From an uncultured Ignavibacteriales bacterium (lineage in GTDB: Bacteria; Zixibacteria; MSB-5A5; GN15; JAAZOE01), in NCBI GenBank assembly GCA_964526635.1, contig CAZGLR010000014.1, positions 1 to 40,520 of the forward strand: a stretch of 40,520 nt of DNA, read 5' to 3'. Below the pieces are notes generated by a model. The model saw only the letters and a list, made by a program, of their open reading frames with translations. It did no database searches and was not told where the DNA came from. Both the position numbers and the translations under genes were made by a program. Position 1 is the first letter of the stretch, and every line of letters begins with the position of its first letter. Positions 5,403 through 40,296 of this stretch are shown piece after piece.

Positions 5403-7520
5403 ATGTTCTTCAGCAAAATGAAAATCGGCACTAAACTTATCAGTATCTTTTTACTCACTGGTTTGGTACCGCTCGGAATTTTAGGTTTTATCAGTCTTTC
5501 AAAGTCGCAATCGGCACTCGAGCATGCCGAATTCAATCAGCTTGAATCAATCCGGCAAATTAAAAGGCTTCAAATCGAATCATATTTTGCCGAACGACTC
5601 GGAGATGTTTCGGTTTTATCGTCCAACCCGACAGTTGTCGAGGCGATGGAAGCGTTTGATCAGGCTTTTACCTTTGGTGTCGACAGCGACCAGTACAAAC
5701 AGGTCAATTCCGCCTATTCCGATTGGTTAACACAGTATGAAAAAGAATACGGCTACTATGATCTTTTCCTGATCAATACCGACGGCGACATTGTGTATAC
5801 CGTCGAGCGAGAACCCGATTTTGCCACCAATCTTGTTTCGGGGAGATTTTCCAACCAGAATATCGCTGCCTTGTTTCACCGCGCCAAAAACGAGGTTGTC
5901 CTTCAGGATTTTGCCGCCTATGCGCCATCCAATGGCGTCGCGGCCAGTTTTGTCGGCGCACCGGTGAAGAAGGACGGCAAGACAATCGGCGTAGCAGCGC
6001 TTCAACTTTCCATTGCCGCGATCAATAAGATCATGCAGGAAAGAAGTGGTCTGGGTGAATCCGGAGAAACGTATTTGGTTGGTGATGATCTCCTGATGCG
6101 GTCGGACTCACGCTTTTCGACGAAGTCGACCATTCTTGAGCAAACCTGTGATCATGCCTCGATTAAATCCGGTTTGACCGGCAAGTCGGGTATTGAGGTT
6201 GTTCCGGATTATCGCGGTATCAATGTCCTCTCGGCCTATGCACCACTTGAACTACCCGGTCTGAACTGGACGATTATCGCCGAAATTGACGAAGAGGAAG
6301 CGTATCACGCTGTGGCCACGCTCCGCAGTTTTATTTTCCTGCTCATCGGGGTGATTGCTGTTATTGTGGCTGCCGTGGGGTGGTTTTTCTCGCGGAGTAT
6401 TTCTCGCCCGATAGCGCGTGTAGCGATGGTTGCCTCGAGTGTGGCCCAGGGCGATGTGAATCATAAGATAGAAGTAAGATCACAGGATGAGATTGGGCAA
6501 CTGGGACGTTCCTTCGAAGAGTTGATTGACTATATGAAGGAAATGGCCGGCGCCGCCGAGAGTATTGCCAGGAATGATTTGACCGCATCGATTACTCCGC
6601 GATCAGAAGATGATGCGCTTGGTAATGCCTTTAAGATGATGATTGACAATCTCTCCGGTGTCCTGAATCAGTTGAACGACAGTGTCCAGCAACTGGTGAC
6701 GGCCTCCAATGAGATCAGTTCATCGTCGGAACAGATGGCGACCGGGTCCCGGTCACAGACAGATCAGGCTAATCAGGTGACCAGCGCTATTCAGGAAATG
6801 ACAGCGACGATTCTCGAATCCTCCAAAAATGCCAATGAAGCCCGCGAGGTTTCTGAACAGACATCCGCGAAATCCGGCGAGGGGCAGCGCGTCGTGGGAG
6901 ATACCATATCCGGGATGGTCCGTATTGCCGACTCCGCCTCCGAATCCGGACGCATCATTTCCGACCTGGCCGAAGCATCGGATAAAATCGGCGAGATTAT
7001 TGCGGTTATAGATGACATTGCCGACCAGACCAATCTACTGGCTCTCAACGCTGCCATTGAGGCAGCCCGGGCCGGTGAACAGGGTCGAGGCTTTGCTGTC
7101 GTCGCCGATGAAGTCCGCAAACTGGCCGAACGCACCGGCACGGCCACAGGTGAAATCACTGACATGATAAAAGGCATCCAGGAGGATTCCGGACGGGCGG
7201 TGACATCTATGGAAGGTGCCTCCAAGCTGGTCGATGAGGGCAAGGCGCTGGCCGATGAAGCCGGCAACAGCCTGAATGAAATCAACCAGATGTCCACCCG
7301 GGTATCGGATATGATCATCCAGATTGCCACAGCGGCCGATCAGCAATCAGCTGCCGCCGAGCAAATTTCACATAGCATGGAGCAAATCGCGAATGTCACG
7401 CGAGAATCTGCCGCCGGCGCCGAACAGTCCGCCAGCGCCGCGGAAAATCTAAACCAACAGGCCGAAGTGCTCAAGACGATGATCGGGCAATTTAAAGTGC
7501 GAACCAAAGCGACTGTTTGA
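5403..7520 (+). CDS. Methyl-accepting chemotaxis protein with periplasmic double-Cache-like sensor, HAMP and MCP signalling domain
   Basis: Strong RBS (agggggaag) before ATG; N-terminal TM, about 270 aa periplasmic region, second TM, HAMP, then the highly conserved signalling tip [34 protein letters not shown]. Confidence 0.9.
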
Positions 7521-30115: not shown

Positions 30116-31738
30116 TTACCCTGTCTTCTCTTCGGAGGTTGCGTCTAAGGCATTGGCCATCATATCCTCGGTCTTGATCCCGGCTTTTTTCAGGAGGTCA
30201 CCGACATCTATTCCGGCGGCTTTGGCCTGCTCCAGAAACTGGAACAGCATGGTTGGTCCGATTTTCGAAAAACGGTTCAAAGCGCTGTCATCTTTGCCGT
30301 TACCGCCGCTATCGACGACCACCAGTTTATCGATATTACCCATTGGAGCGGCAATCGATCCAAACACCGACCCGAGAGCCTGTATGGCTTGCGGCAGGAC
30401 TTTTAGAACTTCAAGTGTCAAAGCCGCTTCATTGAATTGCTGATAGGCTTTGGCGAGTTCGTTAATGGAGACAGCTTTGGCCAGTCCCTGTTTTTCAATG
30501 ACGTCGGCCTCTGCCAGACCCTTGCTCTGGGTGATTTCGGCTTCAGCCAAACCGGTGGCCTTTGTCGCAGCCGCCATACCTTCACCTTCAGCCTTGCGTT
30601 TATGCTGTTCAGCATCGGCCCGGGCGATAGTGGCGTATTTGTCGCCTTCGGCTTTTGCCTGCTGGGCTACCCGATAGCCCTCGGCTTCCTTGACACTGGC
30701 ATCAGCCTTGGCTTTGGCGGGTACCACGATCACCGCTTCCTGCGATTTTTGTTCTCGCAGAATGTTTTGCTCTTCTACTTCGATCTGGGCACGTGAACGT
30801 TCTTCCTCGATTTTAACCTCGGCAATGATGACCTTTTGCTTCTGCTCGGCGGTTGAGAGGGGACCGGCCTGATCGGTGACGGCCGTTTCGCGGGCAATCT
30901 CCGCCTGGTATATCTGCTTGGCAACCTGGGTGTTTTTTTGCGCTTCAGCCTCGAGCCGTTCATTTTCCTGGGCAACCACTTCGGCTGCCCGTTCGGCATC
31001 GGTGGCCCGCTTTTTGGCTTCAGCCAGTGCCTCGGCCTCGCCGATTGCGGCATCACGCTTGACTTCGGCAGTACGCTTTTTACCAAGGGCTTCGATATAG
31101 CCCAACTCGTCAGTAATAGACTGCGGGTTGAACACGTCTATCTGCATACCGAGTCGGGACAAATCTTCACCGGCTTCGCCCAGTACTTTCTGCCGAAAGG
31201 CGTCACGGTCTTTGATCAACTGATCGACTGTCAGGGTTCCGACCACACCGCGTAAGTTGGATTCAAGTGTTTCCCGTGCGACACTTTGTACATTTTCGTG
31301 TGACATGCCGAGGAACCGGGCTCCGGCCGCCAACAGGGATTGCGCGTCATCCTTGAAACGGATATTGGCCACCGCCTCCACCGTGACCAGCACGCCATCT
31401 ATATTAGGCATATTTTTGACAAAAATCTGAGGCAGTGAAATTTCGGTCAGATCAAGGAATTCGACCGCTTCAATAATCGGTTTGCGAATGCGGCCGCCAC
31501 CGGTAACGACCACTGTCCCGGGAGGGAGAACCGTAACGGTGGCCTCATCCGGACCTCCGATTTTTGCAATTTTCTGAATCCCCTTTTTGCCGCTTTTGGC
31601 GCCATAGAAAAAGGCCGCCTTATTCGGAGGGACCCGAACGTAATAGGCTGCCAACGCTTTGACCAATACAAAAAGTGCAATTATTGCGGCCAACCCAATC
31701 GCCGGCCAAATTAAAGTCCCAATTATTTCTTCAGACAT
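30116..31738 (-). CDS. Flotillin-family SPFH/band-7 protein (FloT/YuaG-like)
   Basis: N-terminal TM helix; SPFH domain then long Ala/Glu/Lys/Gln-rich coiled-coil (EA repeats) typical of flotillins; RBS GGAGGG. Confidence 0.85.
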   Translation of the reverse strand: MSEEIIGTLIWPAIGLAAIIALFVLVKALAAYYVRVPPNKAAFFYGAKSGKKGIQKIAKIGGPDEATVTVLPPGTVVVTGGGRIRKPIIEAVEFLDLTEISLPQIFVKNMPNIDGVLVTVEAVANIRFKDDAQSLLAAGARFLGMSHENVQSVARETLESNLRGVVGTLTVDQLIKDRDAFRQKVLGEAGEDLSRLGMQIDVFNPQSITDELGYIEALGKKRTAEVKRDAAIGEAEALAEAKKRATDAERAAEVVAQENERLEAEAQKNTQVAKQIYQAEIARETAVTDQAGPLSTAEQKQKVIIAEVKIEEERSRAQIEVEEQNILREQKSQEAVIVVPAKAKADASVKEAEGYRVAQQAKAEGDKYATIARADAEQHKRKAEGEGMAAATKATGLAEAEITQSKGLAEADVIEKQGLAKAVSINELAKAYQQFNEAALTLEVLKVLPQAIQALGSVFGSIAAPMGNIDKLVVVDSGGNGKDDSALNRFSKIGPTMLFQFLEQAKAAGIDVGDLLKKAGIKTEDMMANALDATSEEKTG

Positions 31739-31762
31739 GATATTCCCTCCGTTGTACTATTT

Positions 31763-32278
31763 TCATTGAATCTTTTCGACTGTGACTATGTTTCCGGTTT
31801 TACCGACAATTTTGACCACCGCACCCTTGTTGATTGACTCGCCGCTACTCGATCGCGCCAGAAAAGTAAATTCTCTGCCACGGACAATGCAGGAGACCTG
31901 CCCCGTCGCGCCATTATCGATCATATCGATTAAATTTGCTGTTTGGCCAATAATATCTGAATCACCAATAGTTGAACTTGCCTGGCTGCCGTAAAACATG
32001 CGCAGTATAAAGTACCCCATAGTGCAAAGGACTAATGCTCCCGCGACTCCGGTCAGGGAGGATTGAAGCATGCTAAAATCGGTTGTGGCTCGAATCCCAA
32101 ACCCGGTGCCACCGAAGCCGACCATTAGCAGCGCAAACATCTTAACGCTGAAGATGCTGGGACCATGACCAACATCGGCGTCAACGTCGACATCAAAATC
32201 GGCATCGGCATCGCCGAAAACAAGGCTGATAAGGAGAATGATAAAACCCAGGCCGAATATTAGCGCAAAGATAAGCAT
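31763..32278 (-). CDS. NfeD-family membrane protein (YuaF-like, C-terminal OB-fold)
   Basis: ATG 32278 with GGGGAGGA RBS; two TM segments then a soluble beta-rich C-terminus; immediately upstream of flotillin as in nfeD-floT operons. Confidence 0.7.
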   Translation of the reverse strand: MLIFALIFGLGFIILLISLVFGDADADFDVDVDADVGHGPSIFSVKMFALLMVGFGGTGFGIRATTDFSMLQSSLTGVAGALVLCTMGYFILRMFYGSQASSTIGDSDIIGQTANLIDMIDNGATGQVSCIVRGREFTFLARSSSGESINKGAVVKIVGKTGNIVTVEKIQ

Positions 32279-32660
32279 TGTATCCTCCCCGATTCTTATT
32301 CTGAATTGATATACTGTGGATATAGCGAAAAATTCAATTTTTTGCGACAATAATATAACAACCGATATCGGGGGGCGGCGATTTTTTCATTTCCCCCGGC
32401 AACATCGCCTTACCGTAATCCTGATCAGAATATTTTCATGGTCGTTTTTGTCAGGCTATGTCGATAGTTACTTGTCACCGGCCCGGGGCTTGGGGCCGAT
32501 AGGAAAATAAAGATCGGCACTAAAGTCAGCTCTTTTGAGTAATGCCCAATCTGTTTTGCAAAATTTCTTCTTTTGTAGATAGATTAATTACCGTCTATAA
32601 AATTTGATTTATATAAAGGAGATAATTGCTAATTGAGGCATTGGTTTATATACTGTCCTT

Positions 32661-33992
32661 GTGGATACTGAGTTCAACAGCACGACCGAGATTATTCTTA
32701 ACAGTATTGCCGATGGCGTCTTCACCGTCGACAATCAATGGCGCATCCGGTCATTCAATCGGGCCGCCGAAATCATCACCGGTATAAGTCGGGAAGAGGC
32801 TGTCGGGAGGCGTTGTTGTGACATCTTCCGGGCATCGATCTGCGAAAGCTCCTGCGCCCTGCGCCAGACCATGACTACCGGGACCAACATCCTCAACAAA
32901 ATCGTCTATATCATCAACAGCGATGGTGACCAGATACCGGTCAGTATCTCGACGGCGCTGCTCAAGGATAACGACGGCCGCGTGATTGGCGGGGTCGAGA
33001 CCTTCCGCAATCTCAGTGATATCGAACGACTGCGCCGTCAGCTCGAAAAACAATACACGTTCCAGGACATAATCAGCAAACATCCCCGTATGCTCGAGCT
33101 GTTTGATCTGCTCCCGGGGATCGCGGAAAGCGACAGCAGTGTGGTGATCCAGGGCGCCAGCGGCACCGGAAAGGAACTTGTCGCCAGGGCTATCCATGAT
33201 CTCTCGCGCCGCCGCAAAGGGCCGTTTATCGCCATTAATTGCGGGGCGCTGCCCGATACCCTGCTTGAGGCCGAGCTTTTTGGCTATAAAAAGGGCGCAT
33301 TCACCGACGCCCGCACCGACAAACCCGGGCGATTTGCCCAGGCCGAGAAGGGGACGTTGTTTCTCGATGAAATCAGCGATATCTCGCCAGCCATGCAATC
33401 GCGCCTTTTGCGCGTCCTCGAGAATAAAACATATGAACCGCTCGGGGCAACCGCCAGCGAAACAGCTAATGTGCGCATTATCGCCGCAACCAATAAACCG
33501 CTGTCCAAACTGATCGCCTCCGGCACCTTCCGGGAAGATCTGTTTTATCGCATTAATGTCATGGAAATCAGCCTGCCTCCGCTCAAAGAGCGGCGCGGGG
33601 ATATTCCCCTGCTGGTGAGCCATTTTGTAAACCATTTCAATACCATGACCGCCAAAAATATAAATGATATTTCCCCGGCCGCCCTGGAAACCCTGATGAA
33701 TCATGATTACCCCGGCAATATCCGGGAATTACAGAATATTATTGAACATGCCTTTGTCGTAAACCGAAAAGGCATTATCGAAACCGCCGACTTGCCCGGC
33801 CATCTTTTGCCGGAAAAAAAACTGCATTCTTCCGAGCCTCAAACGCTTGATGAACTCGAAGCAAAACTCATCAGCAATGTCCTTCGTCGCAATGATTGGA
33901 ATCGGGCCCGGGCCGCGGCCGAACTGGGTATTCATCCCACGACGTTATGGCGTAAGATCAAAAAACTCGGGATCACAACCCCCAATTCATAG
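32661..33992 (+). CDS. Sigma-54-dependent transcriptional activator with N-terminal PAS sensor domain and C-terminal Fis-type HTH
   Basis: AAA+ sigma54-interaction motifs GASGTGKELVARAIH, GAFTDA (GAFTGA variant), ELFGY; C-terminal NRARAAAELGIHPTTLWRKIKKLGI; no receiver domain. Confidence 0.85.
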   Translation: MDTEFNSTTEIILNSIADGVFTVDNQWRIRSFNRAAEIITGISREEAVGRRCCDIFRASICESSCALRQTMTTGTNILNKIVYIINSDGDQIPVSISTALLKDNDGRVIGGVETFRNLSDIERLRRQLEKQYTFQDIISKHPRMLELFDLLPGIAESDSSVVIQGASGTGKELVARAIHDLSRRRKGPFIAINCGALPDTLLEAELFGYKKGAFTDARTDKPGRFAQAEKGTLFLDEISDISPAMQSRLLRVLENKTYEPLGATASETANVRIIAATNKPLSKLIASGTFREDLFYRINVMEISLPPLKERRGDIPLLVSHFVNHFNTMTAKNINDISPAALETLMNHDYPGNIRELQNIIEHAFVVNRKGIIETADLPGHLLPEKKLHSSEPQTLDELEAKLISNVLRRNDWNRARAAAELGIHPTTLWRKIKKLGITTPNS

Positions 33993-34139
33993 CATTGCAT
34001 TACCGCAATTGTAGTTTCTTGAAATATTGCAAATATGCAATATTTTTAGTGCGTTCATGCGAAGTCGATTAATCGATGAACATTTTAATCAATTGTACCA
34101 CAATAATATATTGTTTTCTTGTTTGTGTTTTGCTTATGT

Positions 34140-34155
34140 CGGCAAGCCTTTTGCT
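34140..34155 (+). promoter_or_regulatory. Putative sigma-54 (-24/-12) promoter cGGCAAgccttTTGCT
   Basis: GG and GC correctly spaced versus consensus TGGCAC-N5-TTGC; immediately upstream of the NifX-like operon and downstream of a sigma-54 activator gene; leader to ATG 34172 is unusually short. Confidence 0.4.
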
Positions 34156-34171
34156 TTTATGTTACAACGTT

Positions 34172-34582
34172 ATGGAAAGGGTTGCAATTCCGCTATATAA
34201 TGGACGGGTATCGCCGGTCTTCGATACCGCCACACAGGTTCTGGTCGCTGCCTGTGGCGCTCGCCAGTATTACATCGAAAAGACACTGAGTCTCAAGACA
34301 TCAGATCCGGCCCAACGGTGCCGTTGTCTTGCCGAAAACGGCATCACGGTCATTCTTTGCGGTGGGATATCCCGGCGATTTCTGGCCTATTTACGGAAGT
34401 ACAATATTGTTGTTCATTCTTTTTTAAGCGGGCCGATACCGCAGATCCTGAGAACGTATGTTCGTGATTTTGAACATCTCCAGGATCATCGCCAAATCAG
34501 GCAACGTCCACAGCATCATCGCCGGCGACGAACGGGACATCGGATGCAGCCGCCATCTCAGAAAAAAATGGAGTCGAAATGA
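34172..34582 (+). CDS. NifX/NifB-C-like (dinitrogenase FeMo-cofactor-binding family) domain protein 1
   Basis: MERVAIPLYNGRVSPVFDTATQVLV...ENGITVILCGGIS matches the Nitro_FeMo-Co family pattern; Arg/His-rich tail may indicate an uncertain 3-prime end or a frameshift. Confidence 0.55.
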   Translation: MERVAIPLYNGRVSPVFDTATQVLVAACGARQYYIEKTLSLKTSDPAQRCRCLAENGITVILCGGISRRFLAYLRKYNIVVHSFLSGPIPQILRTYVRDFEHLQDHRQIRQRPQHHRRRRTGHRMQPPSQKKMESK

Positions 34583-34944
34583 AAATTGCTGTTTCAGCTC
34601 AACAGGATTCATTGTCCAGTCCGGTCGATCCGCGGTTTGGCCGGGCCCCGTTTTTCATCATTTATGATACCGACACCGATTCGCACGAAATTATCTCGAA
34701 TGCGGAAAATGTAACGGCCGGGCAGGGTGCCGGCATCCAGGCGGTCCAATTGGTGGCGGGTCATAATGTTGAAATGGTCATTTCCGGCCGCGTCGGTCCC
34801 AAGGCATTCGTGGCGCTTGGCACCGCCGGCATCAGGGTTGCCTCATGGCAGCAGGGCACGGTTTCCGAGGCTATCGATCTGGCCCGGGATAACCGACTTG
34901 AATTTATCAACCAGGCCAATGCCGCGGCTCATTGGCAGCAATAA
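34579..34944 (+). CDS. NifX/NifB-C-like domain protein 2
   Basis: MKIAVSAQQDSLSSPVDPRFGRAPFFIIYDTDT...QLVAGHNVEMVISGRVGPKA family pattern; RBS tggag; 4-nt overlap with the upstream ORF. Confidence 0.7.
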   Translation: MKIAVSAQQDSLSSPVDPRFGRAPFFIIYDTDTDSHEIISNAENVTAGQGAGIQAVQLVAGHNVEMVISGRVGPKAFVALGTAGIRVASWQQGTVSEAIDLARDNRLEFINQANAAAHWQQ

Positions 34945-34969: not shown

Positions 34970-35251
34970 GTGACACCTGACAGCACCAGAGGCGGCCGAC
35001 GATTTCGACTGCGCGGGAATAAGGCGGTGCGCAACAGCGGACTGACTCTTCTGGCTACGTCAATTGTATCGGCCATTACCTACGATCTCAAACAGCCGGA
35101 CAGTATCGTACGCGGCCTGATTGGATCCGGGTATCGCGCGCTTAAATCGCTGGCTGCCCCTCGCCGGGGTCAGGATGTTTCTGATCTGGTGGACGTTACC
35201 GACGTTGCCCCGGCTGAAATTATTGAAGATGAATCGAAGCGAAAGGAGTAA
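34970..35251 (+). CDS. Small hypothetical protein (GTG start, about 93 aa)
   Basis: Fills a 310-nt gap inside the operon; GGGAGGTGA RBS 9 nt before GTG 34970; acidic C-terminus; no family recognised. Confidence 0.3.
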   Translation: MTPDSTRGGRRFRLRGNKAVRNSGLTLLATSIVSAITYDLKQPDSIVRGLIGSGYRALKSLAAPRRGQDVSDLVDVTDVAPAEIIEDESKRKE

Positions 35252-35255
35252 CACC

Positions 35256-35615
35256 ATGCCAGGAGGAGATCGTACCGGACCATTGGGTGCCGGACCATTA
35301 ACCGGTCGAGGCGCCGGCTTTTGCCGTGGCGCCGGGCAACCGGGTTTTTATACTCGCGGTGGTCGCGGCCGGGGTGTCAACCGTCCTTTCGGCGGTCGTG
35401 GTGGTCGCCGGCGCGGCGATTTCTACTATCAACCTGATGCCGTCGGATGGACCCGCGGCAGTGGCGAACCGATTATGGCGGCGGCAGACGCGGCGTATCA
35501 GGACGAAAATACCGGTCTGCAGCAGCAAATTGACAATTTGACCAAAACGGTCGAAGCACTCGGCAGCCGGGTAAAGCAATTGCTGCGGAAGGACACCAAA
35601 GATGATGCAAAGTAA
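35256..35615 (+). CDS. DUF5320-like Gly/Arg-rich protein with C-terminal coiled coil
   Basis: AAAGGAG RBS; N-terminus MPGGDRTGPLGAGPLTGRGAGFCRGAGQPGFYTRGGRGRG resembles the MPRGDGTGPxGxGPxTGRG signature of DUF5320 proteins that accompany MinD-ferredoxin/NifX-like clusters; C-terminal helix QQQIDNLTKTVEALGSRVKQLL. Confidence 0.6.
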   Translation: MPGGDRTGPLGAGPLTGRGAGFCRGAGQPGFYTRGGRGRGVNRPFGGRGGRRRGDFYYQPDAVGWTRGSGEPIMAAADAAYQDENTGLQQQIDNLTKTVEALGSRVKQLLRKDTKDDAK

Positions 35616-35853
35616 AGGACGCGGCGGCGGCCAGGGACAGGGCGGTGGTCGCGGTCAGGGACAGGGCGGTGGTCGCGGCCAGGGCCAGGGACGTGGTCAG
35701 GGTCAGGGACGCGGCGGCGGGCCGAATATGCAGCGCGGACCCGGGGGTGAGTGTATCTGCAATAACTGCGGTGCGATCGTCCCGCATGAACCCGGTGTTC
35801 CCTGCATGGATCAGACCTGCCCGAAATGCGGCGGGACGATGGTAAGGAAGTAA
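35602..35853 (+). CDS. Gly/Arg/Gln-rich low-complexity protein with C-terminal 4-Cys zinc ribbon
   Basis: Overlaps the upstream stop by 14 nt; GRGQGQGGGRGQGQGGGRGQGQGRGQGQGRGGG then CICNNCGAIVPHEPGVPCMDQTCPKCGG. Confidence 0.55.
   Translation: MMQSKGRGGGQGQGGGRGQGQGGGRGQGQGRGQGQGRGGGPNMQRGPGGECICNNCGAIVPHEPGVPCMDQTCPKCGGTMVRK
35632..35720 (+). repeat. Imperfect tandem DNA repeat (about 24-nt unit ggacagggcggtggtcgcggtcag, about 3.5 copies) encoding (GRGQGQGG)n
   Basis: Read directly from the sequence. Confidence 0.8.
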
Positions 35854-35867
35854 CGCGGAACGACTGC

Positions 35868-36716
35868 ATGAGAATAGCCTTTGCCAGTGGAAAGGGTGGT
35901 ACCGGTAAGACAACGCTGGCCACCAATTTGACAGCATGGCTCGCTGATCAGGGCGAGACAGTTTGCTATGCCGACTGCGATGTGGAAGAACCTAACGGGC
36001 ATATTTTTCTCAAACCGGAGATTGAGGACACCATTGACGTGACTGTCCCGATTCCGGTAATAGACGCAGAGGCCTGTGATGCCTGCGGCGAATGTGTGAC
36101 GCATTGTCAGTTCAATGCCATAGCTCTTTTGGGCAAAACTGTCGCAGTTTTCCCAACACTCTGCCACAGTTGCGGGGTGTGCAGTGCCATCTGTCCTCAG
36201 CAGGCGATTACTGAATCATCCCGGTCGCTTGGCACGATTACTATCGGTCGCGGCCGTGGCGCTGGTGTGTATACCGGGCGTCTGACGGTTGGCGAAGCGC
36301 TGGCCCCGCCGGTCAGCAGAGCGCTGAAAAGCCTGTTACCCGATGACGGCACCATAATTATCGATGCTCCGCCGGGCACGTCCTGTCCCGTGATTGAAGC
36401 GGTAACCGGATGTGACTATCTGGTATTGGTAACCGAACCGACACCGTGCGGCCTCCATGATCTCTGTCTGGCCCTTGAGATGGCGGGAAAGCTCCATCTG
36501 CCCTGTGGTGTCGTGATAAATAATGACGATGGCGACCCCGATACGGAAGTCGCGATCGCCTCCAGGGGCGCAGAAATTCTACAGACTATCGCATATCAGC
36601 CGCATCTGGCCCGAAAGTATTCCGAGGGACACATGTTGATCGATGCTGATCCGGGCTATGCCTGGAAGATGAAACATCTCTATGGCAAAATAACACGGGC
36701 GGTGGCGCATGGCTGA
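35868..36716 (+). CDS. MinD/ParA-superfamily P-loop ATPase with inserted 2x[4Fe-4S] ferredoxin domain (COG1149-type)
   Basis: Deviant Walker A SGKGGTGKTT; CDACGECVTHCQFNAI and CHSCGVCSAICPQQAI CxxCxxCxxxCP clusters. Confidence 0.85.
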   Translation: MRIAFASGKGGTGKTTLATNLTAWLADQGETVCYADCDVEEPNGHIFLKPEIEDTIDVTVPIPVIDAEACDACGECVTHCQFNAIALLGKTVAVFPTLCHSCGVCSAICPQQAITESSRSLGTITIGRGRGAGVYTGRLTVGEALAPPVSRALKSLLPDDGTIIIDAPPGTSCPVIEAVTGCDYLVLVTEPTPCGLHDLCLALEMAGKLHLPCGVVINNDDGDPDTEVAIASRGAEILQTIAYQPHLARKYSEGHMLIDADPGYAWKMKHLYGKITRAVAHG

Positions 36717-37635
36717 GATGGTCTTTATCAGTGGCAAAGGGGGGACCGGGAAGACCACTGTGTGTGCCAGTCTGGGGCATCTTCCTGAATCCTGTGTGCT
36801 GACAGACTGCGATGTGGATGCAGCCAATTTGCATCTGCTGGTCAACTACAACACCAAAGAAACACATGATTTTTCCACCAGTGCGGTGGCGTCGATCGAT
36901 CAGACTGCCTGCGATTCCTGCGGGCTGTGTTTTGATTTGTGTCGTTTTTCGGCCATCAGCCGTACCTATAAATCCGATGTACCGGGAAAATATGAATACC
37001 GCGTGGAGCCGCTTGCCTGTGAGGGCTGCGGTATGTGCCGTTACATGTGCCCGCAAAAGGCGGTTGAACTGAAACCGGTACGCAGCGGCCAGTGGTTTAT
37101 CTCCGAAACCGAGCGCGGGCCGTTTTATCATGGCCGCCTTGATATCGCTCAGTCCAATTCCGGCCGCCTGGTTTCTCTGCTGCGCAAAAAGGCACAGGAA
37201 GCCGCGCGCGTCTCGAACATCCCGCTGCTGCTCACCGATGGTCCTCCGGGGATTGGCTGCCCCGTAATTGCATCAATAACCGGCGCCGACCTGGTCGTGG
37301 CTGTTTCGGAACCATCGCGCTCGGCCTTTCATGATCTGCAACGGATTGTTGAGTTGACGACATTTTTCTCGCTCCCGGCGGTCGTGTGTATTAACAAATA
37401 CGATATCAATCCAGAAATCTCCCGTCACATCGAGGAATTCGCGCAGGAACATCATCTGCCGGTTGTAGCCAGGTTGCGCGTTGACCGGGCAGTGATCGAC
37501 GCCCAGCGAACCGGGCGACCGTATCTCGATGTTGCGATCGACTATAACCGTCGCGAATTGATTAAAATGTGGAATACAGTAATTGATCGATTGCCTGACC
37601 TCAATGGCACCAGGCAACGGCGTTTTGCCGTCTGA
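36709..37635 (+). CDS. Second MinD/ParA-type ATPase with inserted 2x[4Fe-4S] ferredoxin domain
   Basis: SGKGGTGKTT; CDSCGLCFDLCRFSAI and CEGCGMCRYMCPQKAV; 8-nt overlap with the upstream paralog. Confidence 0.85.
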   Translation: MAEMVFISGKGGTGKTTVCASLGHLPESCVLTDCDVDAANLHLLVNYNTKETHDFSTSAVASIDQTACDSCGLCFDLCRFSAISRTYKSDVPGKYEYRVEPLACEGCGMCRYMCPQKAVELKPVRSGQWFISETERGPFYHGRLDIAQSNSGRLVSLLRKKAQEAARVSNIPLLLTDGPPGIGCPVIASITGADLVVAVSEPSRSAFHDLQRIVELTTFFSLPAVVCINKYDINPEISRHIEEFAQEHHLPVVARLRVDRAVIDAQRTGRPYLDVAIDYNRRELIKMWNTVIDRLPDLNGTRQRRFAV

Positions 37636-37664
37636 TGAAAATGAATGAAATGGAGAAGACAACA

Positions 37665-38048
37665 ATGAAAATAGCCATCCCTACCGAAAACGGCCGGCTG
37701 TGCGCCCATTTCGGACACAGCCCGCAGTTTACCCTGGTCGATGTCAACGCTGATACCGGCCTGATAGAAAACAGGTCAACGATGACTCCACCGCCGCATG
37801 ACCGTGGTGTCCTCCCGGCCTGGCTGCGCGAGCTCGGGTGCACGCACATCATTGCCGGTGGTATGGGCGGTCGGGCGCTGACGCTTTTTGCCCAGCAGGG
37901 CATCGAAGTAGTGTGTGGGGTCGGTGAGTCGGATATTGACGACATTATCGCAGCTTTTTTTGCCGGCACGCTGGCGACTGATAACAATCCCTGCAGTGAT
38001 CCCTCGTTTCATGCGGGGGGGCATACTGATTGCGAGCATCGTCATTAG
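37665..38048 (+). CDS. NifX/NifB-C-like domain protein 3 with Cys/His-rich C-terminal extension
   Basis: MKIAIPTENGRLCAHFGHSPQFTLVDV...HIIAGGMGGRALTLFAQQGIEVV; tail NPCSDPSFHAGGHTDCEHRH; RBS ggagaag. Confidence 0.7.
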   Translation: MKIAIPTENGRLCAHFGHSPQFTLVDVNADTGLIENRSTMTPPPHDRGVLPAWLRELGCTHIIAGGMGGRALTLFAQQGIEVVCGVGESDIDDIIAAFFAGTLATDNNPCSDPSFHAGGHTDCEHRH

Positions 38049-38133
38049 ATGCCGCCGGTTGATGAACAAATAGTGACACTTACAACCTGTGCCGGTCTTT
38101 ATGGTCGGCGTAAGGAATAGATGGAAAGCAACT

Positions 38134-39588
38134 ATGCGAACAGATCCGATCTCTGAAGAACAACGTAAGACGGCTTTTGCGGCCACCAAAAAGCCGGATG
38201 TGATGGAGCGGCAAAAGCTGGCGGTGCGATATCATGTCGAGGATTACGATATTGCCGACCGGCCACGGAAATTTCTGGAGGCCTTTGCCGCAATTTTGCG
38301 GCATACCAATTATCGTTTTGCTCTGGATCATTTCGCGCGGGTCTCGGCAAAGTGCGCCCGATGTTCGGTCCAGTGCCCGGTGTATCAGGCGACCGATGAT
38401 GTCACCGACATCCCCTGCCATCGATCTGAATTGCTGCTGAAGGTCTATAAACGGCACTTTACCCTGGGCGGTATGTTCCAGGGCCGCCTGACCGGCAGTG
38501 GCCACCTGACCGACAGCGATATCGAAGAGATGGCCGACTCGTTCTGGAATTGCACCGCCTGCCGGCGCTGCACGCTGGAATGCCCGGTCGGCATCGATCA
38601 TGCCCTGATTACCCATCTTGGCCGTTTCATCCTCAGCGAAATTGGTATTGCCCCCCGGGCGCTGGTCGTCAGTACCCGTGAACAGCTCGAAGGTAAAACC
38701 GGTAACACTTCGGCTATACCGCTGCCGGCCCTGGTCGATACCCTCGAATTTCTTGAAGAGGATATGAAAGAGGAAAAGGGCGTCGATATTAAATTCCCGC
38801 TCGATGTCGATGGCAGCGAATACCTCTTTATGCCGGCGGTCTCCGATTTTTTGATGGAGGCCGAGACCCTGATGGGTATCGCAGCTGTCTTTGCCGCCAC
38901 CGGCGGTTCCTGGACAATCAGCACGGAATACTTCGATGCAATCAACTACGGCCTCTTTTACAATGATCGCATTCTTGAACGGGTCATTCGCAAGCTGTAT
39001 GCCGAATCCGAGCGGCTGCATACCAGGGCTATACTGATCGGTGAATGCGGCCATGCTTCGCGTACGGCCAAATATTTCGTGCCGGTGCATTGCGGTGGCG
39101 ATAAAGCCAGGCCCGTGTTGAATATCATGGAATACACATATCGCATGCTGAAAGAAGGCAAACTCAAACTCGATCCCAACGTGATCACCGAACGGGTGAC
39201 ATATCACGATCCTTGCAACATCGCCCGTCAGGGCTGGGTCGTTGACCAGCCGCGTGAGATTATCCGGGCTTTCTGCAAAGACTTTGTTGAGATGACCCCG
39301 CGCCGTACCGAAAACATCTGTTGCGGTGGCGGTGGCGGATCGGTATCGATCGATGAAATCCGTCCCTATCGCACGACGATCGGCGGCAAGGCCAAGGCCG
39401 ACCAAATTCGTAACACCGGCGCCAGGTACGTTATTGCGCCATGCGCCAACTGCAAAAAGCAATTGCGGGAACTGGTCGAAGATCAGCGAATCGACTGCGA
39501 AGTCATCGGGCTGCATGATCTGATCTACAAAGCAATTATTTTCGATACTGTCCCGCAGCCATCACCCGAAACCGTGGAGAAAGGATAA
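38134..39588 (+). CDS. HdrD/DsrK/GlpC-like Fe-S oxidoreductase with CCG domain
   Basis: Cys clusters CARCSVQCP and CTACRRCTLECP; CCG-domain signature HDPCNIARQG...ICCGGGGGS...APCANCKKQL; start at ATG 38134 preferred. Confidence 0.75.
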   Translation: MRTDPISEEQRKTAFAATKKPDVMERQKLAVRYHVEDYDIADRPRKFLEAFAAILRHTNYRFALDHFARVSAKCARCSVQCPVYQATDDVTDIPCHRSELLLKVYKRHFTLGGMFQGRLTGSGHLTDSDIEEMADSFWNCTACRRCTLECPVGIDHALITHLGRFILSEIGIAPRALVVSTREQLEGKTGNTSAIPLPALVDTLEFLEEDMKEEKGVDIKFPLDVDGSEYLFMPAVSDFLMEAETLMGIAAVFAATGGSWTISTEYFDAINYGLFYNDRILERVIRKLYAESERLHTRAILIGECGHASRTAKYFVPVHCGGDKARPVLNIMEYTYRMLKEGKLKLDPNVITERVTYHDPCNIARQGWVVDQPREIIRAFCKDFVEMTPRRTENICCGGGGGSVSIDEIRPYRTTIGGKAKADQIRNTGARYVIAPCANCKKQLRELVEDQRIDCEVIGLHDLIYKAIIFDTVPQPSPETVEKG

Positions 39589-39591
39589 CCA

Positions 39592-40296
39592 GTGCAGGAG
39601 ATACTCGATTTTTGCCGCGGCCCGCTGTTCCGATTTTCCTTTTTACTTATGGTCTTCGGACTGCTCCGCATCCTGGTCCTTGATATCTGGCAGGCGTTGA
39701 TCGCATGGCGCCGGGCCGGGGACAAGCGACTTGCGTGGAAGTCGGCGACAGTCAATACTTTACACTGGCTGTTTCCGATTAAAAAGACGTTTACCCGAAA
39801 ACCGGTCTATAGCCTGGTTTCTATATTGTTTCACGTCGGCTTGATCACTGTCCCGATTTTTCTGGCCGCTCATATTACACTCTGGCACGAGAGTACCGGT
39901 ATCAGATGGTGGGCCATGCCGCACAGCCTGGCTGACTGGCTGACGATCTCCACGATTGTCTTTGCCCTGACCTTGTTTGCCTGGCGGGTGCTCAGCCGTG
40001 ATGCCCGCTTTCTCAGCCGCAGCCAGGACTATCTTTGGCCGATTTTGCTGAGTATCCCGTTTATTACCGGCTATGCCTGCGTCAATACCGCTTTGAGTGC
40101 GCGAGCGTATGAATTCAGTATGCTGCTGCATGTGCTGTCGGCGAACCTGATTTTCGTCATGATACCGTTTTCGAAAATCGCCCATTGTGTCATCCAGCCG
40201 TTGTCGCAATTCATGCTGGCCCTGGCCTGGAAATTCCCGGCCCGCATCGATGATAAAATTGCCACGACTCTCAAGAAGAAAGGAGCGCCGGTATGA
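39592..40296 (+). CDS. NarI/DsrM/HdrE-like integral membrane cytochrome b
   Basis: 5 TM helices with conserved His (LFHVGLITVPIFLAAHITLWH, LLHVLSANLIFVMIPFSKIAH), as in nitrate-reductase gamma-like subunits that pair with HdrD/DsrK. Confidence 0.65.
   Translation: MQEILDFCRGPLFRFSFLLMVFGLLRILVLDIWQALIAWRRAGDKRLAWKSATVNTLHWLFPIKKTFTRKPVYSLVSILFHVGLITVPIFLAAHITLWHESTGIRWWAMPHSLADWLTISTIVFALTLFAWRVLSRDARFLSRSQDYLWPILLSIPFITGYACVNTALSARAYEFSMLLHVLSANLIFVMIPFSKIAHCVIQPLSQFMLALAWKFPARIDDKIATTLKKKGAPV

Follow-up and report, generated by a model that had tools for sequence, protein, structure and literature searches.

The closest described counterparts of the genes considered here belong to the ORP system of Desulfovibrio, which comprises the regulator OrpR (DVU2106), the MinD-like ATPases Orp3 and Orp4 with two ferredoxin motifs, the orange protein Orp8 with a NifX-like fold, Orp9 (MrpORP), and the small proteins Orp5 and Orp7 (PMC6345978, PMC8359166). 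The purified ORP complex consists of Orp3, Orp4, Orp5, Orp8, and Orp9, and clusters of iron and sulfur (Fe-S clusters) are passed to it by MrpORP (PMC6345978), while OrpR of D. vulgaris is a redox-sensing regulator with a [4Fe-4S]-binding PAS domain (PMC8359166). A second point of comparison is IssA of Pyrococcus furiosus, in which a NifX-type domain is followed by a disordered cationic Gly-rich tail with the proposed function of wrapping anionic thioferrate; uncharacterized Gly-tailed relatives in nonthermophiles were noted in the same work (PMC5524996). IssA also has uncharacterized relatives known as IssX. Here, we describe two overlapping open reading frames (ORFs), ORF-A (positions 35256 to 35615, 119 amino acids) and ORF-B (35602 to 35853, 83 amino acids), on the forward strand of a 40,520-nucleotide stretch of DNA from an uncultured Ignavibacteriales bacterium (contig CAZGLR010000014.1, referred to here as the window). 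ORF-A is a DUF5320 protein, and ORF-B consists of a Gly/Arg/Gln-rich tail and a C-terminal domain with six Cys and one His, which we call the Cys6His domain. Both lie in an OrpR/sigma-54-type cluster that also encodes ATPases of the Orp3/Orp4 type and a NifX protein of the ORP type, and we cautiously favor the view that they are small accessory subunits of an ORP-type, IssA-like system for handling metal-sulfur clusters.

DUF5320 is a known family and the ORP cluster a known system, to which the window adds a further member. The new points are the link of the Cys6His domain to NifX-like domains by synteny and fusion, the DUF5320-type start of Orp5, and the recurrence of cationic tails. The ORP cluster is among the most conserved anaerobe-specific gene sets, its function has been unclear since 2011, and there are acknowledged gaps in our understanding of how Fe-S and heterometal clusters are trafficked in strict anaerobes. 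The ORF-A and ORF-B families are candidates for missing carrier or adaptor steps.

Comparison of the locus with the ORP system

The two genes are part of a co-directional row in the order OrpR-like activator, NifX0, NifX1, a small ORF, the DUF5320 gene (ORF-A), ORF-B, two ATPases, and NifX2, all on the forward strand. The activator (32661 to 33992) is a sigma-54 enhancer-binding protein with PAS, AAA+, and HTH_8 domains according to Pfam. Its residues C52, D54, C61, and C65 are placed as has been reported for the PAS domain that binds [4Fe-4S] in D. vulgaris OrpR (PMC8359166), and its loop has the unusual GAFTDA sequence that is also listed for DVU2106 (PMC4641369). Judged by these residues, it is likely the regulator of the operon, suggesting that OrpR-type redox control extends beyond the Desulfobacterota. 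Just upstream of the first operon gene lies a sigma-54 promoter-like element, GTCGGCAAGCCTTTTGCTT (GGCA-N7-TGCTT, 34138 to 34156), which in form equals the orp1 promoter of D. vulgaris, CACGGCATCATTCCTGCTT (PMC4641369 supplement). Its core (34141 to 34156) ends ∼16 nucleotides before the ATG at 34172, which would imply a very short leader. The sigma-54 pattern occurs 36 times against 39.9 expected matches, a nonsignificant count, and it is the position of this element that supports it.

Two MinD-ferredoxin ATPases resembling Orp3 and Orp4 follow ORF-B. The first (35868 to 36716; CbiA, ParA, and Fer4 matches in Pfam) is a P-loop ATPase of the MinD/ParA type into which a 2x[4Fe-4S] ferredoxin domain is inserted, and it starts 14 nucleotides past the ORF-B stop codon; the second (36709 to 37635), also of this type and with such an insertion, has CbiA and Fer4 matches. 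A preliminary description of the stretch, made from the sequence alone, had the pair of small genes flanked by Fe-S ATPases, which does not hold, as both ATPase genes lie downstream and the genes upstream are NifX-like. These upstream genes are NifX0 (34172 to 34582), the first gene of the operon, and NifX1 (34579 to 34944), an orange-protein-like Nitro_FeMo-Co protein (PF02579, E value of 9.1e-24). NifX0 contains Cys and is weakly NifX-like (Nitro_FeMo-Co, E value of 1e-5, 26.1 bits with a cutoff of 26.3), and it shares with IssA the architecture of a domain followed by a cationic C-terminal tail. The last gene is NifX2 (37635 to 38048; PF02579, E value of 1.9e-19). In its CAHFGH motif and in a Cys/His patch at the C terminus (…CSDPSFHAGGHTDCEHRH), its product resembles the second (Di-Nase) domain of MrpORP, for which CXHFGHCE and CDH motifs have been described (PMC6345978).

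The locus shares with the ORP system its type of activator, a promoter-like element of similar form, its two MinD-ferredoxin ATPases and NifX-like proteins, and a small Gly-rich protein gene directly before the ATPase genes. It differs in forming a single co-directional operon, whereas Desulfovibrio has two divergent ones, in having NifX2 as a stand-alone protein with no Mrp/NBP35 domain, in encoding two small Gly/Arg-rich proteins where one Orp5 has been recognized, and in probably belonging to a phylum other than that of Desulfovibrio.

A published figure of the orp2 promoter, together with a cloning primer, gives the start of Orp5 (DVU2105) as ATG CCA TAC GGA GAT GGA AC, which translates into MPYGDGT. 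Over these seven residues, it matches the motif of ORF-A (MPGGDRT) and not the start of the window ORF-B (MMQSKGR), which suggests that Orp5 belongs to the MPxGDxTGP family. DVU2105 was automatically annotated as "major ampullate spidroin" (PMC4641369 supplement), which suggests a Gly-rich Orp5. The link between the small proteins and the MinD-ferredoxin ATPases that the preliminary description had proposed gains support from Desulfovibrio, where Orp5, with its MPYGDGT start, is part of one purified complex with both ATPases (PMC6345978).

The relation of ORF-B to a second Desulfovibrio protein is less straightforward. Orp5 is stated to be homologous to Dde_3197 (PMC6345978), a small Cys-containing protein of the ORP operon reported to bind [2Fe-2S] in work from 2016 cited there; ORF-B is likewise small, has six Cys and one His, and lies in an ORP-type operon. 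In G20, OrpR is Dde_3196. Dde_3197 is the first regulated gene, and after it come the ORP gene Dde_3198 and Dde_3199, which is uncharacterized. Position after OrpR suggests that NifX0 is a better counterpart of Dde_3197 than ORF-B, in disagreement with the published homology statement, and NifX0 may correspond to Dde_3197/DVU2107. An equivalence of ORF-B with Orp5/Dde_3197, which we had first assumed from position, was not confirmed, and the DVU2105 start fits ORF-A better. No Desulfovibrio locus was among the best 80 loci of our species-genome scan, a protein search with a Desulfobacterota-type homolog returned no named Desulfovibrio protein, and a text search for the motif strings found nothing. 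Literature searches covering Dde_3197 led to a single G20 transcriptome study.

ORF-A and ORF-B are real genes

ORF-A and ORF-B are real genes. Their coordinates and their overlap of exactly 14 nucleotides (35602 to 35615) agree with the preliminary description, as does the basic, Gly/Arg-rich nature of both products, which have isoelectric points of 10.1 (ORF-A) and 9.7 (ORF-B), rising to 11.6 for residues 1 to 66 of ORF-A and to about 12 for the N-terminal part of ORF-B. A Shine-Dalgarno sequence, AAGGAG, is found 7 nucleotides 5' of the ORF-A start, and a Shine-Dalgarno-like GGAAGGA is found 8 nucleotides 5' of the ORF-B start.

We consider it highly improbable that one or both ORFs are noncoding products of a GC-rich repeat that keeps several frames open. 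Such an artifact would be in keeping with two long antisense ORFs across ORF-B (35473 to 35937 and 35498 to 35926, minus strand, 154 and 142 amino acids), which are probably held open by the repeat, and with the absence of the exact ORF-B product, in any of three alternative starts, from a collection of 15 billion proteins that does hold ORF-A of the same contig. However, hundreds of homologs from different phyla, 55 to 65% identical to ORF-B, retain invariant Cys and His residues in its frame, its Shine-Dalgarno-like sequence and conserved operon position speak for a gene, and a homolog in an isolate genome, Peptoclostridium acidaminophilum, is annotated as a coding sequence by RefSeq ("hypothetical protein," next to a "DUF5320 domain-containing protein"). 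Because the pattern CxCxxC...C....CxxC is kept in 118 of 120 homologs, well outside the low-complexity part (homology confined to that part was a refuting condition named in the preliminary description), we take the ORF-B frame as coding; at the level of sequence, the homologs refute a noncoding origin. No Rfam family matched anywhere in the window. Given that ORF-A is present in the 15-billion collection and ORF-B is not, ORF-B apparently went uncalled on its own contig. Gene callers may miss or mis-strand it, and genes of this kind are possibly underannotated.

ORF-A is a DUF5320 protein

ORF-A matches the Pfam family DUF5320 (PF17253) over model positions 1 to 99 of 99, with an E value of 6.4e-20 and 72.6 bits (cutoff of 27), so that its earlier description as DUF5320-like is well founded. 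A search of 5.8 billion proteins yielded 1,063 homologs, and PF17253 was assigned to every one listed. The protein starts with the motif MPGGDRTGP...GRGAGFC (residues 1 to 30, 35256 to 35345). In an alignment of 56 family members, M1, P2, G4, D5, T7, G8, P9, G11, G13, G17, R18, A20, G21, C23, G25, and G30 are invariant, giving a family motif of MPGGDRTGPxGxGPxTGRGAGxCxG, and ORF-A carries all of the invariant columns. ORF-A had been described as a low-complexity protein, which is not the case for these first 30 residues with their nearly invariant motif and invariant Cys. The motif is followed by a Gly/Arg/aromatic stretch predicted to be disordered (residues 31 to 74) and by a single long helix (residues 75 to 118, 35478 to 35609), which AlphaFold2 predicted with a pLDDT of 85 to 97, in agreement with the C-terminal helix of the preliminary description. 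With the family alignment as input, residues 1 to 74 had no confident structure. The order of invariant motif, Gly/Arg/aromatic middle, and C-terminal helix is that of DUF5320 proteins in general. The family has no assigned function, and the literature searched held only two incidental mentions of it.

ORF-B carries a conserved Cys6His domain

ORF-B is composed of a cationic tail rich in Gly, Arg, and Gln (residues 1 to 48), predicted by AlphaFold2 to be disordered, and of the zinc-ribbon-like Cys6His domain (residues 47 to 83, 35740 to 35850). A search of the 5.8 billion sequences yielded 421 homologs at an E value of ≤1e-3 (best, 2.9e-16), all of them 60 to 100 amino acids long, with the 55 to 65% identity spanning the C-terminal 35 residues. 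Across 72 aligned homologs, C51, C53, C56, H62, C68, C73, and C76 are invariant, corresponding to the pattern CxCxxC-x5-H-x5-C-x4-CxxC. The preliminary description had seen here a CxxC...CxxC knuckle ending the protein; the zinc-ribbon-like ending stands, while the motif is richer than this (C51-x-C53-x2-C56...H62...C68-x4-C73-x2-C76).

When a profile of the family was compared with 1.84 billion cluster representatives, it matched 2,199 clusters (50% identity) at an E value of ≤1e-3 and 699 at ≤1e-10. A scan of one genome per species with the trimmed family alignment found the domain encoded in at least 573 species genomes, from anaerobic lineages of both Bacteria and Archaea, among them Chloroflexota/Dehalococcoidia, Desulfobacterota, Zixibacteria, Omnitrophota, Planctomycetota, Bathyarchaeota, Asgard archaea, methanogens, and others. 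This large and conserved family is nonetheless without a Pfam, NCBIfam, or PDB entry: ORF-B matched no Pfam family at an E value of ≤0.01 (zinc-ribbon models and DUF5320 included) and no NCBIfam model, sequence and profile searches of the PDB found no related solved structure, and no description of the family was found in the literature searched.

The border with DUF5320 is blurred at the N terminus. Many ORF-B relatives start with an MPRGDGTGP...GRG module like that of DUF5320 proteins, owing to which some are scored or named as DUF5320 (P0019 and P0438), whereas the window ORF-B has no MPxGDxTGP motif and carries the Cys6His domain in place of the helix. We also considered whether each locus needs the MPxGDGTGP motif just once, carried either by ORF-B or by a distinct DUF5320 gene. 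The counts (6/10/13/18; Fisher's exact P value of 1.0) led us to reject this.

AlphaFold2, run with the family alignment, predicted a confident small beta domain for residues 50 to 83 (pLDDT of 85 to 94) and disorder for residues 1 to 48, so that the N-terminal disorder that had been proposed for both proteins is also what the models give. The Foldseek matches of the domain in the PDB were zinc ribbons, all with E values of ≥0.1, which makes a zinc-ribbon fold plausible but not proven. The top match, over 38 residues with 39% identity (probability, 0.99; E value, 0.11), was 4qbh, the zinc-binding lid (LID) domain of a Gram-positive adenylate kinase. The predicted fold of ORF-B and its CxxCG...H...CxxCG spacing resemble this domain. 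The LID domain has an unrelated function, the E value is not significant, and ORF-B has three additional conserved ligand-type residues. In multidomain proteins with the Cys6His domain, C53, C56, C73, and C76 never vary, and conservation of C51, H62, and C68 is 90% or higher, which we read as a Cys4 zinc-ribbon core with an extra Cys-His-Cys triad.

A basic RGG-like tail joined to a zinc ribbon is the classic makeup of small proteins that bind RNA or DNA. In that case ORF-B, and possibly also ORF-A, would work alongside DUF134-type helix-turn-helix proteins, either regulating the operon in response to metal or redox state or serving it as RNA chaperones. The weak sequence matches in the PDB are to zinc ribbons of ribosomal proteins, RNA polymerase, and Nop10 and to ribosomal protein tails rich in RG, single family members bear the JGI names "predicted RNA-binding Zn-ribbon protein" and "ssDNA-binding Zn-finger," and a DUF134 gene lies near the ORF-B homolog of Peptoclostridium. 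We nevertheless think a role in nucleic acid binding improbable. The PDB matches reflect generic CPxCG knuckles (E values of 0.002 to 1), the three conserved ligand-type residues outside the Cys4 core would go unexplained, and the genes sit within a structural operon, tightly coupled to an ATPase gene.

Domain fusions point to NifX-like partners

The domain architectures bear on the same question. Among 54 representatives longer than 120 amino acids from the top 150 profile matches, 19 contain Nitro_FeMo-Co, often accompanied by PDZ domains and by the Cys domain in two to five copies. DUF134 fusions (4/54, with Sigma70_r4_2-type matches in two) would suit nucleic acid binding, but they are about five times rarer than fusions to NifX-like domains, and further fusions join the domain to rhodanese together with Nitro_FeMo-Co, to a 4Fe-4S ferredoxin (3/54), to an HtrA-type protease, and to a cation-efflux transporter. 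The last of these is found in a Bathyarchaeota genome (L002), where the Cys6His domain ends a cation-diffusion-facilitator-like membrane protein, assigned by reading its sequence. In five Desulfobacterales loci (L020, L024, L026, L048, and L049), a single ORF encodes a NifX-like domain that is joined through a Gly/Arg/Gln linker to the Cys6His domain, and in Methanococcoides (L050) the Cys6His domain follows a DUF134 domain and an MPGKDGTGP motif. No fusion to a MinD-type ATPase was seen among the representatives examined. This pattern suggests that the ORF-B domain has its closest functional partner in the NifX-like domain and not in the Fe-S ATPases that the preliminary description had put in this place.

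Very large proteins of this kind (P0121, P0122, P0124, P0127, P0131, and P0137; 772 to 1,516 amino acids) have N-terminal PDZ domains, two to five Cys6His domains, and between one and four domains of the Nitro_FeMo-Co type. Rhodanese, Cys6His, and Nitro_FeMo-Co occur together in P0130, and in P0134 the Cys6His domain precedes the HtrA-type protease.

Synteny in other genomes

To place the operon among related loci, we compared the window proteins with all ORFs of the best 80 genome loci. The complete gene order, from OrpR through NifX2, is found in six of them (L003, L004, L009, L033, L035, and L057), and the labels of the closest syntenic loci include Ignavibacteriales and Zixibacteria. Where at least 3 kb were available on both sides of the ORF-B homolog, 33 of 41 loci have a partner gene within 3 kb, namely, a MinD-Fer4 (27 loci), NifX-like (30), or DUF5320 (20) gene. 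The pairing with MinD-ferredoxin genes that the preliminary description had proposed to look for is therefore seen across phyla. Of 62 loci with at least 1.2 kb on both sides, 22 have a NifX-like gene as their immediate upstream neighbor. Two further contexts, in which genes had been called independently and labeled with Pfam beforehand, add Fur/PadR, FeS_assembly_P, NifU_N, and CooT beside the cluster. One reads FUR, DUF5320, Nitro_FeMo-Co, ORF-B homolog, two CbiA/Fer4 ATPases, FeS_assembly_P, DnaJ, and NifU_N; the other reads PadR, a Nitro_FeMo-Co-DUF5320 fusion, Nitro_FeMo-Co, ORF-B homolog, ATPase, TrmO_N, ATPase, FeS_assembly_P, and CooT.

The immediate downstream neighbor is a MinD-ferredoxin ATPase in 22 of the 62 loci, with a gap of −4 to +19 nucleotides in 19 of these 22. 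Such tight coupling is also what one would expect if the small proteins had no metal chemistry of their own and the coiled-coil of ORF-A, together with the sticky tails, recruited or spaced the MinD-like ATPases at the membrane or pole, as MinE or MinC do for MinD. This reading joins the tether idea of the preliminary description, which is speculative, to the cell division role first proposed for ORP. The long ORF-A helix, the copurification of Orp5 with Orp3 and Orp4, the MinD-like amphipathic helices of Orp3 and Orp4 and the polar position of MrpORP (PMC6345978), and the morphological defects of an orpR mutant (summarized in PMC6345978 and PMC8359166) are all compatible with such a tether. 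We still regard a purely structural role as unlikely, given that metal ligation is what the invariant Cys6His residues of ORF-B and the invariant DUF5320 Cys point to, that fusions to NifX-like domains are common while none to an ATPase was found among the representatives examined, and that the same cationic tails occur on ferredoxins and NifX0. Both the tether and nucleic acid binding are less well supported than a role as accessory subunits of an ORP-type, IssA-like system.

Cationic tails recur in the system

Of the first 50 residues of ORF-B, 25 are Gly, 10 are Gln, 6 are Arg, and just one is acidic; the tail is 50% Gly and has seven basic residues. Across the family, tails are 29 to 87 residues long, with medians of 45% Gly, 14% Arg plus Lys, and 3% Asp plus Glu. 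Within the ORF-B tail, Tandem Repeats Finder reported a single array of period 24 at 35627 to 35717, with 3.8 copies of units encoding GGGRGQGQ (80% matches, score of 119), close to the ∼3.5 copies counted earlier. The ORF-B genes of syntenic relatives have repeats of 42 nucleotides with 4.1 copies (L035) and of 27 nucleotides with 3.5 copies (L033); compared at the sequence level, the tails appear to evolve through tandem duplication, with units that differ by lineage. A metagenome scan found no relative above 58% identity, and the closest relative found is ∼58 to 63% identical. In L003, a metagenome-assembled genome of the Ignavibacteriales (about 5928 to 6335), a run of N interrupts the Gly/Arg repeat of the ORF-B homolog; it may be masking or an assembly gap and suggests that such repeats are hard to assemble.

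Similar tails are found on other proteins of these loci. All NifX0-type proteins of L003 (4305 to 4730), L004 (6594 to 7010), L009 (5758 to 6174), L035 (6169 to 6600), and L080 (235 to 672) have Arg/Gly-rich C-terminal tails, often with Cys, and small 2x[4Fe-4S] ferredoxins of ORF-B loci carry cationic Arg/Gly(/Trp) tails. These composition patterns suggest that cationic tails are a recurrent module of the ORP-type system. Tailed ferredoxins were seen in L036 (3886 to 4368), L007 (5372 to 5806), L009 (7092 to 7742), and L057 (7226 to 7834), as well as in L030, L034, L054, L064, L068, and L072. That of L036 has the full DUF5320 N-terminal motif (MPFGDGTGP...GRGMGYC) after the ferredoxin domain, and those of L009 and L057 have a Gly/Arg-rich N terminus, then a DUF5320-like helix, and a C-terminal ferredoxin.

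Tails comparable to that of IssA are thus found on ORF-A, ORF-B, NifX0, and the cluster ferredoxins, and in the Desulfobacterales the NifX domain, the tail, and the ORF-B domain are on one polypeptide. The window differs from IssA in that no Nitro_FeMo-Co domain is found in ORF-A or ORF-B, with tail and NifX domain placed on separate polypeptides, in that the ORF-B tail is made of Gly, Arg, and Gln with hardly any aromatic residues, and in that IssA has no Cys6His domain.

A possible role in metal-sulfur cluster handling

The biochemistry that we infer for ORF-A and ORF-B, that is, the identity of the ligands, the metal bound, and the direction of transfer, can be outlined as follows. The whole system, restricted to anaerobes, would be transcribed as a single operon under sigma-54/OrpR control. 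The cationic, disordered, Gly/Arg-rich and acid-poor segments could serve as arms that electrostatically hold an anionic metal-sulfide, either thioferrate-like Fe-S chains or a thiometallate cluster, much like the role suggested for the cationic Gly-rich tail of IssA; alternatively, they could hold an acidic surface of a partner protein. In the ORF-B domain, C53, C56, C73, and C76 would form a zinc-binding core, and C51, H62, and C68 might form a second, incomplete metal or [2Fe-2S] site that is completed by a partner or a second copy. Such a shared site would suit the handover of clusters to or from NifX-like domains. The long C-terminal helix of ORF-A might mediate oligomerization or docking onto the complex, and the two MinD-ferredoxin ATPases would provide ATP-gated assembly or transfer. 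The ORP system would in this way be tied to the IssA model, in which iron and sulfur are stored as an anionic mineral on cationic protein tails.

Several points weigh against assigning the two proteins to such a system. The zinc-ribbon assignment comes from a 34-residue model with nonsignificant Foldseek E values (best, 0.11) and no solved relative. DVU2105, read over seven residues, could end in a helix like that of ORF-A or in a Cys6His domain like that of ORF-B, and the window ORF-B is without the MPxGDGTGP motif common among members of its family. About one-fifth of the well-flanked loci have no partner genes within 3 kb, showing that the domain is not strictly tied to the operon. As for the models, the IssA tail is rich in aromatic residues and its role is itself only a model, and the physiological role of the ORP complex is unsettled, with cell division as the original proposal.

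A bolder version of the same idea, which we put forward as tentative and rather doubtful, is that the Cys6His domain is a widespread but unrecognized metal-cluster carrier domain of anaerobes with NifX-like partners, that the tails on ORF-A, ORF-B, NifX0, and the ferredoxins jointly nucleate or hold an anionic metal-sulfide phase, whether thioferrate-like or thiometallate, and that the ORP cluster encodes an IssA-like particle for storage and delivery rather than a device for cell division.

Other features of the window

Between NifX1 and ORF-A lies a conserved small ORF (34970 to 35251, forward strand, 93 amino acids) with a GTG start after GGGAGGTGA. It matched no Pfam or NCBIfam model, and homologs occupy the same position in L003, L033, L035, and L057. 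Its product has a basic N terminus, a hydrophobic stretch, and a conserved DL+xPDSI+R motif. Upstream of the sigma-54 promoter-like element, palindromes of the type TTGCA...TGCAA are found at 33992 to 34012 and 34028 to 34046. They could be sites for the activator and are unlike the GGGC-N9-GCCC boxes of Desulfovibrio OrpR.

Farther upstream, a flotillin-like gene and a second, possibly NfeD-like gene were recognized by eye on the minus strand (30116 to 32350). Directly downstream of NifX2, positions 38089 to 40296 encode a CCG/Fer4-domain protein (HdrD/DsrK-like, 499 amino acids) and a 234-amino-acid ORF; the latter may be a membrane protein, and the two together may make up a redox module associated with the cluster.

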